64,000 bases of DNA from Escherichia phage vB_EcoM-pEK20: the sequence record MZ868638.1. The stretch is one strand, 5' to 3'. The notes below the pieces were generated by a model. The model ran no database searches and was not told where the DNA came from. It worked only from the letters and a program-made list of their open reading frames with translations. Made by a program: the position numbers and the translations under genes. The first letter of the stretch is position 1. Each line of letters begins with the position of its first letter. This document shows, piece by piece, positions 3,847 through 59,781 of this stretch.

Positions 3847-5829
3847 TTAACCACCTACAGCACCAATTAGTTCGTCGAAATCGGCACCAGTTGCTGTTGC
3901 TACAAAGTTCAATGTAATATAATTTATCGAGCGGGCAGGTTGTAAGTAGAAAGTAGCTACAAATTCATTACGGTCGATAACTGCTGGGGTGTTATTGGTA
4001 GTATCACAAACAACTTTAAAGTTATATACACCACCAAGAGCTTTAATACCCTGTAGATATTGAGAAGTCTCTGTACGGAAAGAAGAACGGGTAAATGCGT
4101 TGTTCAATTCAAACAGGCGATATTTAGATGCTGAACCAATGTTCGTTTTAACCATATTGAACAAACGACGAACGTTAATACGGTCAAATGGTGAAGGAAC
4201 AGAAGTGGCAGTTTTATCACCGTACAGAACATACCCATCACCACCGGTACCAGTGACAGGGTTAATAGCTTCCTGATACAAACGATCACGCTGCGCTTGA
4301 CGAGTTTCAATTGCAAGCTTAATAACGTTAAGAATTTGTCCACGGTTATAACCGGCAGGAGACATCCAAGGCTGAGAAATATTGTCTGTACGAGCACAAA
4401 GTCCAGCAATATCAGCAGCTAACGGAACCCAACGATTCACATCATTATATTTGTCATATTGATATTTATAGTTACCGTCAATAGCCGCGTAAGTAGAACT
4501 TACATTAAAGTTATTATCAGTGTAAGTTCCTGATGCAGTACGCCAATCAACCAGATTATCAACTGCACGATTAACAGGAATACCGACTATAGTTGCACGT
4601 GGTGGTGAGCAAAGAACCAAGCAATCTTGACGAGAATCACCAATTGCTACAACATGTTTCTGAACTGTAGAAGCAACTTCTAAAGATTCACCTGCACAAG
4701 AACCGGCAATAAACAACTGCGCATTAACAGATTCGCGGTCAGCAAACAAATCCCAAGCTTCCATTAAATCACCAGCGTCAACCGTTTCATTAGATGATAA
4801 GCCACCACCCAGTTTGATTACGCCAGAGAAACCTTTTGGCCAACCTTGTGCAGTAGCGAAAATATAATTGCTTGCGCCTTTAGCAAAGAAATCATCAATA
4901 AAGATATTACTACCATAAATATCGCGTTCACCGCGTTTAGTAGAAAGAACTACACTCTGGACTACAGCATCGTTACGACGAACGATAATTGCATATTGGT
5001 CATCAGTTTGTGGGCCATACCCAAATATTGCTTTAGCAGTAGATGCGCGAGTACCACCATCAGGATAAATTTTTAACTGGGCTGAAGCACCTTTGTCGTA
5101 GTCTGCTTTAGATACGATTTCAATTTCGAGCTGGTCGCCAAGTTCACCAGGATAAAGAGCAACTACGCCTGGGACGCCATATTTTTTAATAGATTCTTGG
5201 AAAGTTAGAGAAGTAATAGCTTCTTCAGAAGTTTCAACTTCAGTTAACAGAATACCGGAATCGGTTACGATAGAACCAATTGTAATAACGCCAGAAAGTC
5301 CAGAAGAAGAACTGGCAACTTCGGCGGTCCAGTTAGAACCCAATGCCGGATATTCATTAATTTCTTTTGCACGAGCAATAATTTTACCGGTTGGGATATA
5401 AATGTTAAGAATTTTACCATCGACATCAACTGAAGTGACATAACCATCTGCTTCAACAGTTTCGGTCAAATACTTAACGATAATTTTATCACCGACCGCA
5501 TAGTTACTACCAGCAGCAGAGATTGTGAATTCAATATTGCCTGCTACAGGAGATGAGTTCTTAGCAGTATCACGATCAACTGCGCGTACAACACGAAGGT
5601 CATTACCATATTGAAGGAAGTTCATAGCAGACATGAAATAATCTGCTGTATCCGTATTAGGAGTACCAAACATATCAACTAATGCAACTTCATCAGTGAT
5701 TTGTTTAATCTGGAATGCAGGTCCCCATTGGAATTTTCCAGCCAGGGCAGCAGTACCAGTGGAGTTATTAACTACAGTACTCTGTACGGTAGTTTCTTTG
5801 AGCTCAACGCCCGGAGAGAGAAGTGCCAT
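3847..5829 (-). CDS. 18: tail sheath protein gp18
   Basis: 660 aa, MALLSPGVELKETTVQSTVVNNSTGTAALAGKFQWGPAFQIK...; near-identical to T4 gp18. Confidence 0.95.
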   Translation of the reverse strand: MALLSPGVELKETTVQSTVVNNSTGTAALAGKFQWGPAFQIKQITDEVALVDMFGTPNTDTADYFMSAMNFLQYGNDLRVVRAVDRDTAKNSSPVAGNIEFTISAAGSNYAVGDKIIVKYLTETVEADGYVTSVDVDGKILNIYIPTGKIIARAKEINEYPALGSNWTAEVASSSSGLSGVITIGSIVTDSGILLTEVETSEEAITSLTFQESIKKYGVPGVVALYPGELGDQLEIEIVSKADYDKGASAQLKIYPDGGTRASTAKAIFGYGPQTDDQYAIIVRRNDAVVQSVVLSTKRGERDIYGSNIFIDDFFAKGASNYIFATAQGWPKGFSGVIKLGGGLSSNETVDAGDLMEAWDLFADRESVNAQLFIAGSCAGESLEVASTVQKHVVAIGDSRQDCLVLCSPPRATIVGIPVNRAVDNLVDWRTASGTYTDNNFNVSSTYAAIDGNYKYQYDKYNDVNRWVPLAADIAGLCARTDNISQPWMSPAGYNRGQILNVIKLAIETRQAQRDRLYQEAINPVTGTGGDGYVLYGDKTATSVPSPFDRINVRRLFNMVKTNIGSASKYRLFELNNAFTRSSFRTETSQYLQGIKALGGVYNFKVVCDTTNNTPAVIDRNEFVATFYLQPARSINYITLNFVATATGADFDELIGAVGG

Positions 5830-57343: not shown

Positions 57344-57756
57344 TGAGATATAGCTTTCGTTGTTTTATCGCAGCTTTAGTTTTTGCTATTATTCCATTCA
57401 TTTGGAACAGCCAGAATACTTACATGGAAACTAAAGTAATTCCTGTGGAGGTAGTGGAATTAATCTCAGGCCAATCTACAGGAAAATATTCTAAATTAGA
57501 ATTTATTGCAGTCTATAAAGATGAGCAAGGACGAGTTTTTGACAGGCGTGTATCGCCGTCGTTTTATACGCTTCTGAATAAAGGTGATACGATAGCTATA
57601 GAAATTCGTGAGATGGATATAAAACAAACTACTAAAGATAACTTGATTTGGTTCTTTGGTACAGTGTTGTTGGTTTCTATCTGTATCACAGGTTTTATTA
57701 CATGTATTGTATTTGGCATTGCATATTTAATCGATGAAAGGAAAAATAATGTTTAA
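57343..57756 (+). CDS. membrane protein (137 aa)
   Basis: N-terminal and C-terminal hydrophobic helices. Confidence 0.6.
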   Translation: MRYSFRCFIAALVFAIIPFIWNSQNTYMETKVIPVEVVELISGQSTGKYSKLEFIAVYKDEQGRVFDRRVSPSFYTLLNKGDTIAIEIREMDIKQTTKDNLIWFFGTVLLVSICITGFITCIVFGIAYLIDERKNNV

Positions 57757-58012
57757 AGTGTACGGGTATGACTCTACTATTCATAAATGCATTTATTGCG
57801 ATAATGCGAAACGATTGCTGACTGTTAAGAAACAACCATTCGAATTCATTAATGTTATGCCAGAAAAAGGTGTGTTCGATGATGAGAAAATTGCTGAGCT
57901 TCTGGTTAAGCTTGGTCGTGAATCACAAGTTGGATTGACTATGCCTCAAGTGTTTGCTCCTGATGGAACTTCGATCGGTGGCTTTGACCAACTACGAGAA
58001 TATTTTAAATGA
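57749..58012 (+). CDS. nrdC: phage glutaredoxin/thioredoxin NrdC
   Basis: MFKVYGYDSTIHKCIYCDNAKRLLTVKKQPFEFINVMPEKG... with C-x-Y-C active site; 87 aa as in T4. Confidence 0.92.
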   Translation: MFKVYGYDSTIHKCIYCDNAKRLLTVKKQPFEFINVMPEKGVFDDEKIAELLVKLGRESQVGLTMPQVFAPDGTSIGGFDQLREYFK

Positions 58013-58365
58013 CATATTCATTAAATCTTAAAGATTTCCAAGATGTATACGAAGTTTGTGCCAATGAACTTGGTCCTGATGCTCCAACTATTATTGAAGT
58101 TTTAAATGTGCTCCCTTCATCATTAGCTTACGAAGCCAAATCATGGGGTTGGAACGACACTGTCGTTCGTGATGACCTTTACGTCCTGATGAACGATATG
58201 ATGGTTAAAAAGGCAGAACCGGTTGCACCAATGGTTACCATTACCGTTGAAGAATATAATCGCCTGCAAGCCATTGAAGAGCTTCTGTGGAACATTGAAT
58301 GTGACCTGCCATCCGGACTAGAATCCTGGATTGATTATGAAGAGCTCAATAAACTCCGGGGTTAA
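58009..58365 (+). CDS. hypothetical acidic protein (118 aa)
   Basis: ORF with ATGA overlap to nrdC. Confidence 0.6.
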   Translation: MTYSLNLKDFQDVYEVCANELGPDAPTIIEVLNVLPSSLAYEAKSWGWNDTVVRDDLYVLMNDMMVKKAEPVAPMVTITVEEYNRLQAIEELLWNIECDLPSGLESWIDYEELNKLRG

Positions 58366-58493
58366 ACCGTGGTATTCGGCTCGATGGGAGACAGTCGAGC
58401 CAGACGTCGAAACAGTTTACAATGACGAAGAAACGTGTTATGATGAACCTTCAATAAATGAATTAATTGATATGGAAATGGGAAGAGATTATT

Positions 58494-58664
58494 ATGCAAG
58501 TTAAATTATTGTACCGTTTATTAAAAAATGGCAAGCATGATTGGTATTTGCTTATTAAAACCGATCCGAATTTTTTCTCTGGACAACCATTTACAGTTCG
58601 TCCTACTAAACGTCAGCTTCGCAAAGCTAAACGTTCTCATCGTAACTTTTATAGAGAATATTGA
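58494..58664 (+). CDS. small basic protein, paralog A (RPTKR...HRNFY motif)
   Basis: 56 aa; ...FTVRPTKRQLRKAKRSHRNFYREY. Confidence 0.5.
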   Translation: MQVKLLYRLLKNGKHDWYLLIKTDPNFFSGQPFTVRPTKRQLRKAKRSHRNFYREY

Positions 58665-58665
58665 T

Positions 58666-59079
58666 ATGAATATTTCTGAAACTCGCGGTAAATGGTTCAA
58701 GATTGTTAAAGAAGACGAAGAACTCCAAGATAAGTTTCCTGAATTAAAGAAAGATACGATCATCAAGGTAATTGGTACTACTACCGAAGATGGTTATGGC
58801 GACCATGGCATTATCGAAGTGATGTTGAACACAGGTGAGAAACTTTGCATCTATGACCGTGATACTTCTCTTTGGTGCTTCTGGGAATCCCATTCAATAG
58901 ATGAACTCGAAGAAATTGACCAAGTAGTTTGTGATGGTGGACTTGGCGAATTCAAAGGTGAACGTATTTCTTATGCTTTAGCTAAATTAGCCGCCCAAGA
59001 AAATAATGACGGTTATGAAGGTAATCTGATGCAAGCCGCAGCGGAATACATTGAATATTTAGAAAGACGTTTAAGTTAA
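58666..59079 (+). CDS. hypothetical acidic protein (137 aa) flanked by paralogous small basic genes
   Basis: ATG at 58666. Confidence 0.55.
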   Translation: MNISETRGKWFKIVKEDEELQDKFPELKKDTIIKVIGTTTEDGYGDHGIIEVMLNTGEKLCIYDRDTSLWCFWESHSIDELEEIDQVVCDGGLGEFKGERISYALAKLAAQENNDGYEGNLMQAAAEYIEYLERRLS

Positions 59080-59088
59080 GGGCTTATT

Positions 59089-59268
59089 ATGAAAACTGCA
59101 TTATTTTTTGGCGAAAGAACAAACGGTCAAAAATCTTGGAAATTTGTTATAATTGGTGCTCCAAACAATCCGAACATGAGGACTTCAATCATTTCGGTAA
59201 CACGTCCTACTAAAAGAATGATTCGCCAATACAAACGTTTTCATCGAGACTTTTATAACGTTTACTAA
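59089..59268 (+). CDS. small basic protein, paralog B (RPTKR...HRDFY motif)
   Basis: 59 aa; ...VTRPTKRMIRQYKRFHRDFYNVY; below the ORF-track cutoff. Confidence 0.5.
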   Translation: MKTALFFGERTNGQKSWKFVIIGAPNNPNMRTSIISVTRPTKRMIRQYKRFHRDFYNVY

Positions 59269-59270
59269 AT

Positions 59271-59278
59271 TATAAATA
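59271..59278 (+). promoter_or_regulatory. late promoter TATAAATA upstream of gene 49
   Basis: Exact TATAAATA 30 nt upstream of the gene 49 ATG; its 3' end starts the hairpin at 59278-59302. Confidence 0.65.
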
Positions 59279-59302
59279 CCCTTATCTATTTAAGGTAAGG
59301 GT
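59278..59302 (+). promoter_or_regulatory. hairpin covering the gene 49 ribosome binding site
   Basis: ACCCTTA-loop-TAAGGGT inverted repeat; the 3' arm contains the Shine-Dalgarno AAGGG. Confidence 0.55.
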
Positions 59303-59307
59303 TTATC

Positions 59308-59781
59308 ATGTTATTATCAGGCGCAAAATATAAAGAAGAAAAACAAAAATTTTATGATGCACAGAACGGTAAGTGTCCTATTTGCCACCGTGAATTAGAC
59401 CCTGATGTTCAAGGTAACCATCTTGACCACGACCACGAATTAAACGGGCCAAAAGCCGGTAGAGTTCGTGGATTACTCTGTAATCTGTGCAACGCAGCAG
59501 AAGGTCAAATGAAGCATAAGTTCAACCGTTCCGGTCTTAAAGGACGTGATGTCGACTACCTCGAATGGCTTGAAGCTCTTCTTGCTTATTTGAAACAAGA
59601 TTATTCTGATAATAATATCCATCCTAATTTTGTTCCAGACAAAACTAAAGAGTTCTCAAGACTAGGTAAAGAGGAAATGATGGCTGAGATGCTTCAAAGA
59701 GGATTTGAATATAATGAATCTGATACCAAAACACAATTAATAGCTTCATTCAAAAAGCAGCTTAGAAAGAGTTTAAAATGA
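59308..59781 (+). CDS. 49: endonuclease VII (Holliday junction resolvase, gene 49)
   Basis: MLLSGAKYKEEKQKFYDAQNGKCPICHRELDPDVQGNHLDHDHELNGPKAG...; near-identical to T4 endo VII. Confidence 0.93.
   Translation: MLLSGAKYKEEKQKFYDAQNGKCPICHRELDPDVQGNHLDHDHELNGPKAGRVRGLLCNLCNAAEGQMKHKFNRSGLKGRDVDYLEWLEALLAYLKQDYSDNNIHPNFVPDKTKEFSRLGKEEMMAEMLQRGFEYNESDTKTQLIASFKKQLRKSLK

Follow-up and report, generated by a model that had tools for sequence, protein, structure and literature searches.

Two DUF7279 genes flank the Lon inhibitor gene pin in an RB69-like phage, and recombination between them probably accounts for the loss of pin in relatives

We analyzed a 64,000-nucleotide stretch of the genome of Escherichia phage vB_EcoM-pEK20 (hereafter, the window), focusing on a short run of genes upstream of gene 49, the endonuclease VII gene. 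Megablast comparison identified the window as that of an RB69-like Mosigvirus, with 99% identity to vB_EcoM_JQD51 and 96.7% identity to RB69. The genes under study are two small ORFs, here called A and B, and a 137-aa gene between them. Their positions and sizes, and the adjoining endonuclease VII gene, were correctly given in an earlier note made from the sequence alone (Table 1). All three genes are annotated in RB69, where the middle one is named pin. The segment that contains them is a portion of a variable accessory region extending from nrdC to gene 49, and the 3′ end of the 49.1 homolog on the left overlaps the start of ORF A.

Table 1 Features between nrdC and nrdD in the window (positions are those of the window)
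Feature	Position	Strand	Remark
nrdC	57734-58012	+	
118-aa ORF	58009-58365	+	after nrdC
49.1 homolog	58337-58504	+	PHROG 2382, E 1.7e-28; named 49.1 in RB69 annotation
Early-type promoter-like site	58416-58444	+	TTTACA, 17 nt, TG-TATGAT; inside 49.1
14-nt repeat, left copy ATTGATATGGAAAT	58466-58479	+	12/14 identical to right copy; spacing 194 nt
ORF A	58494-58664	+	56 aa, ATG start; DUF7279; RB69ORF089c
55-nt homology block, left, in A	58599-58653	+	codons RPTKR...FY
ACTTTTATA, left copy	58645-58653	+	identity block of the proposed crossover in natural A/B hybrids
14-nt repeat, right copy ATTGATATGAATAT	58660-58673	+	A/pin junction
pin	58666-59079	+	137 aa
ORF B	59089-59268	+	59 aa; DUF7279; RB69ORF087c
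55-nt homology block, right, in B	59203-59257	+	includes right ACTTTTATA at 59249-59257
Late promoter TATAAATA	59271-59278	+	upstream of gene 49
Hairpin over gene 49 ribosome-binding site	59278-59302	+	-12.9 kcal/mol, z -3.7
Gene 49 (endonuclease VII)	59308-59781	+	fixed neighbour on the right
nrdD	from 59778	+	

Two further observations concern the left part of this region. In RB69, the 118-aa ORF is represented by two separate ORFs, ORF092c and ORF091c. The C-terminal half matched PHROG 3402, "antitoxin from a toxin-antitoxin system" (E 1e-32), and exists in many other genera as a free-standing gene of ~56 aa; a weak match, below threshold, was also obtained to the Pfam family of the RecBCD inhibitor T7 gp5.9. 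Within gene A, the RB69 reference has a run of seven A's (L001 ~2325) at a site where the window (58523-58528) and other Mosigviruses have six. The extra A shifts the reading frame, and RB69ORF089c is annotated as a 38-aa remnant. The seventh A may reflect a sequencing error, gene A may be a pseudogene in RB69, or the run may be slippery.

The earlier note had described the two small ORFs as paralogs, and our comparisons bear this out. In a full-length BLASTP alignment, A and B were 36% identical (E 3e-11), and the motif quoted in that note, NG.K.W ... RPTKR ... KR.HR.FY, corresponds to the invariant columns of the family alignment (G13, W17, R39 P40 T41 K42, R46, K49 R50, H52 R53, F55 Y56). 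Both proteins matched the whole of the Pfam model DUF7279 (PF23945) well above its curated gathering score of 24.5 bits (A, 54.5 bits, E 1.1e-14; B, 53.8 bits, E 1.8e-14), and both matched positions 1-59 of the PHROG 3272 profile (E 5.8e-27 for A and 2e-30 for B). A profile scan of all ORFs in the window found no third copy. DUF7279/PHROG 3272 is a tiny family of very basic proteins of ~55-60 aa, restricted to T4-like phages. When 1.84 billion representative proteins were searched exhaustively with the profile, five matched, four of them T4-like phage proteins (two of the four truncated); the fifth, an ankyrin-repeat protein with 14 weak repeat matches, was rejected as spurious. Word-indexed searches returned five and two close relatives, a pattern scan of IMG/VR yielded no loci beyond those already in our comparison set, and a literature search for DUF7279 found no papers.

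Both "hypothetical" genes are real and under purifying selection. Orthologs of B from Mosigviruses, Tequatroviruses and Dhakaviruses gave dN/dS values of 0.1-0.2, with synonymous sites near saturation between genera. A hardly varies among most Mosigviruses, and comparison with its diverged copies (L055 and L056) gave pN/pS values of 0.2-0.4. AlphaFold2 predicted the same compact fold for the two proteins, consisting of three β-strands followed by a C-terminal helix (pLDDT = 86 for B and 81 for A). Purifying selection together with this common predicted fold identifies A and B as protein-coding genes. Their products are basic, as the earlier note had stated, with pI values of 10.8 for A and 11.4 for B. 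A contains 14 Lys and Arg residues and three Asp and Glu residues, and B contains 12 and two, respectively, which amounts to a net charge of about +10 within fewer than 60 residues. Most of the invariant residues are basic. K42, R46, K49, R50 and R53 have helical spacing and would line one face of the predicted C-terminal helix; positions 44, 45, 48, 51 and 55 are largely hydrophobic and would sit on the opposite face, which presumably packs against the sheet. Judging from such sequence features, we rate binding of RNA, DNA or another polyanion as the likeliest activity of DUF7279, a tentative assignment that may well be wrong; our best guess for an alternative partner would be an acidic host protein. 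Candidate structural relatives considered were the DNA-binding domains built of three strands and a helix, namely AP2/ERF and the N-terminal domains of lambda and Tn916 integrases. Fold and sequence searches returned no match supporting nucleic-acid binding by A or B: a profile search of the PDB gave just a match between the NGK..WK β-hairpin and designed propeller proteins, and a search of NCBIfam with the DUF7279 proteins gave nothing.

The middle gene is pin, as identified by profile matches, and its predicted product is the PinA inhibitor of the host Lon protease. The 137-aa protein matched Pfam Inhibitor_I24 (PF10465) at 160.3 bits (E 3.1e-47, positions 2-136 of 136), far above the gathering score of 27 bits, and PHROG 2167, "inhibitor of host Lon protease", at E 3.6e-51. 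The three genes can accordingly be named as a DUF7279 gene, pin and a second DUF7279 gene. In most other genera, the Pin C-terminus reads ...FSD..F*. Dhakavirus pin differs from that of the window in being split into two ORFs in permuted order (JS10 = L004 1023-1504; also L014, L017 and L018): a 59-aa ORF matching positions 88-136 of the PinA profile comes first, followed by a 100-aa ORF matching positions 3-74. One Dhakavirus locus (L015) keeps the first of these ORFs only, and another (L016) has neither.

We also scanned the segment for expression signals. The promoter-like site inside 49.1 has 10 of 12 consensus matches with TG, and its counterpart in phage SA79RD is annotated as a T4-early-like promoter. 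Because no terminator-like site lies between this early-type site and gene 49, A, pin and B are probably transcribed together, early, from the site in 49.1. Promoter-like sites were not enriched in the region as a whole (9 vs. 7.6 ± 3.0 expected), and the scan found no terminators. Directly downstream of B lie the late promoter and a hairpin over the gene 49 ribosome-binding site. When the sequence of each lineage was folded individually, an equivalent hairpin with other stem sequences was found in six other T4-like lineages (seven in all), and the late promoter recurs with it; stems that differ in sequence and share one shape point to compensatory change. In 58 loci, whichever gene lies upstream ends just before the late promoter, the hairpin and the gene 49 start. 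The late promoter and hairpin thus form a conserved right-hand boundary of the variable segment.

To compare gene order across T4-type phages, we used gene 49 as the anchor in 44 IMG/VR loci and a GenBank set and assigned labels to the ORFs from there back to nrdC. Four arrangements were found in Mosigviruses: A-pin-B (the window, RB69, SA79RD, L007 and L055), A-pin (APCEc01, LF82-1 and F27), pin-B without A (SF and ESCO47), and an A/B hybrid gene without pin (AV114, phiE142, ST0, FL18 and AV116). Tequatroviruses carry a pin gene with a 3′ tail, either followed by B (RB32 and L012) or alone (T4 and four IMG/VR loci). Dhakavirus B follows the split pin or a portion of pin, or has no pin before it. 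A further T4-like lineage (L022, L025 and L036) has a more distant DUF7279 member (Pfam E 2e-15) as the immediate upstream neighbour of gene 49, and in many other genera, which lack a DUF7279 gene, pin directly adjoins gene 49. In GenBank, A-pin was found in ~65 records, A-pin-B in 33-43, the pin-less hybrid in ~36 and pin-B in 11-20, all of these counts being approximate and including GenBank/RefSeq duplicate records. About a quarter of the A-carrying Mosigvirus records lacked pin, which fits pin being dispensable. A, pin and B therefore occur independently of one another in sequenced relatives.

These comparisons around gene 49 identify B as the syntenic copy and A as a Mosigvirus-specific addition. 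In Mosigviruses, Tequatroviruses and Dhakaviruses, B directly precedes the late promoter and hairpin of gene 49. The position of A is between 49.1 and pin, with one copy of a 14-nt direct repeat, ATTGATATG(G/A)A(A/T)AT, on either side of the gene. Since the order pin-gene 49 is widespread across T4-like genera and A is confined to Mosigviruses, it is A that looks like the added piece, and an insertion of pin between recent duplicates, one reading of the suggestion in the earlier note, is not supported. We considered whether the altered 3′ end of 49.1 was a scar of A insertion, and rejected the idea as T4 49.1 ends similarly (IDMEMGYDYCR*). The A-pin Mosigviruses lack exactly 193 bp, corresponding to window positions 59080-59272 and comprising B and its ribosome-binding site. 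In these phages, the pin stop codon runs directly into the late promoter (AGTTAA/TAAATACCC), a junction that resembles the pin-to-late-promoter junction of other genera; B was either lost from this form or never present in it.

The right flank of gene 49 also varies. Some relatives carry a free-standing homing endonuclease gene (NUMOD3) between gene 49 and nrdD (L005 2183-3004, and L057-L059), which is absent from the window; in these relatives the 5′ end of nrdD is diverged, with 62% amino acid identity over the first 58-71 residues. In L055, an unrelated 275-aa ORF (4473-5300) lies between B and gene 49. We examined a possible link between the endonuclease and the pin-less hybrids, through co-conversion or break-induced single-strand annealing, as four of the five first-sampled hybrids carried the endonuclease gene. 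The gene was seen alongside all architectures, and the hybrids phiE142, PHB12, ESh27 and JM10 lack it; the association was a sampling artefact, and the idea was dropped with it.

The age of the paralog pair can be judged from its sequence divergence. In the nucleotide alignment of A and B, 104 of 180 columns were identical (~58%), and a repeat search found a single substantial repeat between them, the 55-nt 3′ block, at 78% identity with its copies 604 bp apart. The small ORFs encode homologous proteins, with nucleotide similarity confined to the 3′ block. B was 53-59% identical to its orthologs in Tequatroviruses (RB32 and PP01) and Dhakaviruses (JS10 and Bp7), and A matched Mosigvirus copies only, at >87% identity, apart from weak matches to B orthologs. 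The low amino acid identity between A and B, the short 3′ nucleotide similarity and the closeness of B to its orthologs indicate that A and B are old paralogs, or copies joined from different lineages.

The pin-less Mosigviruses carry a small gene that is part A and part B. In five of the five examined, the gene reads ...AAACGTTCTCATCGTAACTTTTAT/AACGTTTACTAA, then ATTATAAATACCC, where the part to the left of the slash is A and the part to the right consists of the last three codons of B followed by the downstream flank of B. The junction (...CATCGTAACTTTTATAACGTTTACTAA..., also written ...CGTTCTCATCGTAACTTTTATAACGTTTACTAAATTATAAATACCC) was identical in all five sampled hybrids (L005, L008, L057, L058 and L059), the switch from A to B falls inside ACTTTTATA, which is common to both genes, and the reading frame is intact. 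The distance from the start of the small gene to the start of gene 49 is 210 bp in the hybrids vs. 814 bp from the start of A in the window, so that the two differ by exactly 604 bp. When the junction was used as a megablast query, 37 records matched over its full length, one of which was a joined two-piece match from an A-pin-B phage rather than a hybrid, leaving ~36. Because the 3′ tail and flank of the hybrid are those of B and the remainder is saturated with differences, recombination between an A-type and a B-type gene is needed in any scenario. Recombination between A and B at ACTTTTATA, within one genome or unequally between co-infecting genomes, would produce the hybrids, and the paralog pair would thus act as a built-in deletion substrate for pin. 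Deletion of pin and most of B is favoured by two observations: the most diverged A copies (L055 and L056) end in REY* and are followed by pin, and A copies located ahead of pin span a diversity that includes the A bodies of the hybrids. Overall, old paralogs flank pin, and we consider it likely that recombination between them removed pin in ~36 records.

Several other readings of the pair have to be weighed against this explanation. If one small gene had recently been duplicated in tandem and pin had then entered between the copies, their direct orientation around a single gene and the 55-nt block would be accounted for, but the copies should be highly similar in nucleotide sequence from end to end, and this was not found. 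Recent copies are also hard to reconcile with the overall divergence of A from B, with B being closer to its Tequatrovirus and Dhakavirus orthologs than to A, with the pin-49 or pin-B-49 order of most genera, with the absence of A outside Mosigviruses, and with SF and ESCO47, two Mosigviruses that have pin-B and no A. A fresh duplication is refuted by RB69 and JS09, which have the three genes in this order and no duplication signal at the nucleotide level; in other relatives, the pair behaves as a recombination substrate that removes pin. We regard recent duplication as highly improbable, and of the cassette or duplication reading in the earlier note, true paralogy and cassette-like behaviour of the locus remain, without the recent duplication bracketing an inserted pin. 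The direction of the A/B event is a separate matter, as the junction sequences alone also fit a pin-less ancestor with an A-type gene. An ancestral gene of this type ending in NVY* could have received a foreign pin-B segment by recombination into its 3′ end; a pin-less 49.1-B-49 order does exist in Dhakavirus L016, and the hybrid genes of L058 and L059 show some internal divergence, so that not all hybrids are very recent. However, the last 12 nt of the hybrid and its flank are those of B, so that A x B recombination at ACTTTTATA would be needed anyway, and the REY* ends of the diverged, pin-proximal A copies fit poorly: deriving A-REY-pin from A-NVY would require an extra illegitimate junction. 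We therefore consider this reverse direction unlikely, and deletion of pin through A/B recombination the better account. Two features bear on how often such a deletion occurred. The 9-nt identity block is short for T4 homologous recombination, and the hybrids may stem from a rare event that subsequently spread rather than from repeated deletion; the single junction in five hybrids is equally compatible with one origin and with one favoured in-frame site.

A match to the 3′ block of a DUF7279 gene is also found in T4 PinA. The Pfam I24 model covers residues 4-141 of the 161 residues of this protein (L006 5898-6383, minus strand), and the last ~15 residues, MIQQYKRLHQMFYNT, match the 3′ end of the DUF7279 B gene, which encodes the C-terminal helix. 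The T4 tail and its downstream flank agreed with the 3′ end and flank of RB32 B at 86 of 107 nt. T4 has no separate B gene, and RB32 (L003 1380-1720) has both a tail on pin and a complete B gene. The 55-nt tail copy of RB32 lies between two copies of a 21-nt direct repeat, ACTCAAAATTCTTTTTCTGAC; past the second copy, one can still read what was the original pin terminus (...SFSDRTF*). Tequatroviruses seem to have undergone recombination at this 3′ block as well, with an extra copy placed on the 3′ end of RB32 pin, and the arrangement of T4 resembles the product of a deletion between the two tail copies. In that case, T4 PinA would carry a C-terminal piece of a DUF7279 gene.

The recurrence of the block raises the question of what it is kept for. 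It could be maintained as a nucleotide element, a regulatory or recombination site within which the ORFs are incidental, given that it is the only part of A and B conserved at the nucleotide level and that its copies lie at rearrangement junctions in both Mosigviruses and Tequatroviruses. Among B orthologs, however, synonymous sites within the block vary and the amino acids are fixed, in keeping with the dN/dS values above; moreover, the ORFs are conserved in their entirety, they are confidently predicted to share one compact fold, and promoter and terminator signals are not enriched in the region. This leaves a nucleotide element with very little probability. DUF7279 might instead work with PinA, for example as a second Lon-directed factor, in which case the T4 tail would be a functional fusion and not a scar. 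DUF7279 genes adjoin pin in several genera, and the tails of both T4 and RB32 PinA match the DUF7279 C-terminal helix over the last ~15 residues. Against such a partnership, the hybrids represent DUF7279 without pin, T4 and many genera have pin without DUF7279, the tail is absent from pin of Mosigviruses and most other genera, and it lies between repeats of a type characteristic of illegitimate recombination; DUF7279 is most constantly associated with the gene 49 promoter module, not with pin. We judge it improbable. A broader proposal would make the 3′ block a portable coding homology, the protein-coding equivalent of a PeSL (see below), that has repeatedly moved or removed pin and adjacent genes in various T4-like genera and was the source of the T4 PinA tail, with the tail and the free proteins targeting Lon or a nucleic-acid-bound host complex; this is a speculative idea that we think would probably fail. 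Recombination between old flanking paralogs remains our preferred explanation for the pin-less Mosigviruses.

On that explanation, the locus would offer a base-pair-level example of a host-takeover gene, a Lon inhibitor, being kept or lost in nature through recombination between flanking paralogs. Pin-less and pin-bearing Mosigviruses would form natural isogenic-like pairs for studying the role of PinA in infection, and the DUF7279-like tail of T4 PinA is relevant to mapping of the PinA-Lon interface. The significance of these findings lies mainly in annotation and in the evolution of T4-type phages, and current views of phage biology are unchanged.

The A-pin-B case is ordinary accessory-region shuffling, a known process, here unusually well resolved. 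In the hyperplastic regions of T4-type phages, accessory genes are shuffled via PeSLs, non-coding cassettes that combine a terminator stem-loop with a promoter (Arbiol et al. 2010, PMC2839356; Comeau et al. 2014, PMC4122927). The window resembles PeSL shuffling in that non-essential accessory genes are gained and lost via short flanking repeats. It differs in that the repeat is the 3′ coding block of two paralogs and the product is an in-frame hybrid gene; the repeat lies inside coding sequence, and no PeSL-like signal, a strong early sigma-70-type promoter joined to a terminator stem-loop on both sides of the shuffled gene, was found. The gene 49 control element lies outside the A/B pair. According to the account of Barth et al. 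1988 within PMC2988022, T4 gene 49 has a late promoter and a hairpin that sequesters its ribosome-binding site, which is hidden in early read-through transcripts; the window has the same type of control, with TATAAATA and then a hairpin covering the Shine-Dalgarno sequence directly after B. The biochemistry of Lon inhibition, in the part of PMC8835725 that cites Skorupski 1988 and Hilliard 1998, concerns T4 PinA only, which binds E. coli Lon and blocks both its ATPase and its proteolytic activity. T4 PinA and window Pin occupy the same locus upstream of gene 49; the window protein has 137 aa and ends in ...YLERRLS, whereas T4 PinA, at 161 aa, is extended at the C-terminus by the tail ...FSDRMIQQYKRLHQMFYNT. 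Compared with Pfam DUF7279 and PHROG 3272, A and B are full-length members with no difference in kind. What they add to the family is that two members flank pin in one genome, one syntenic and the other confined to a genus, together with a predicted fold.
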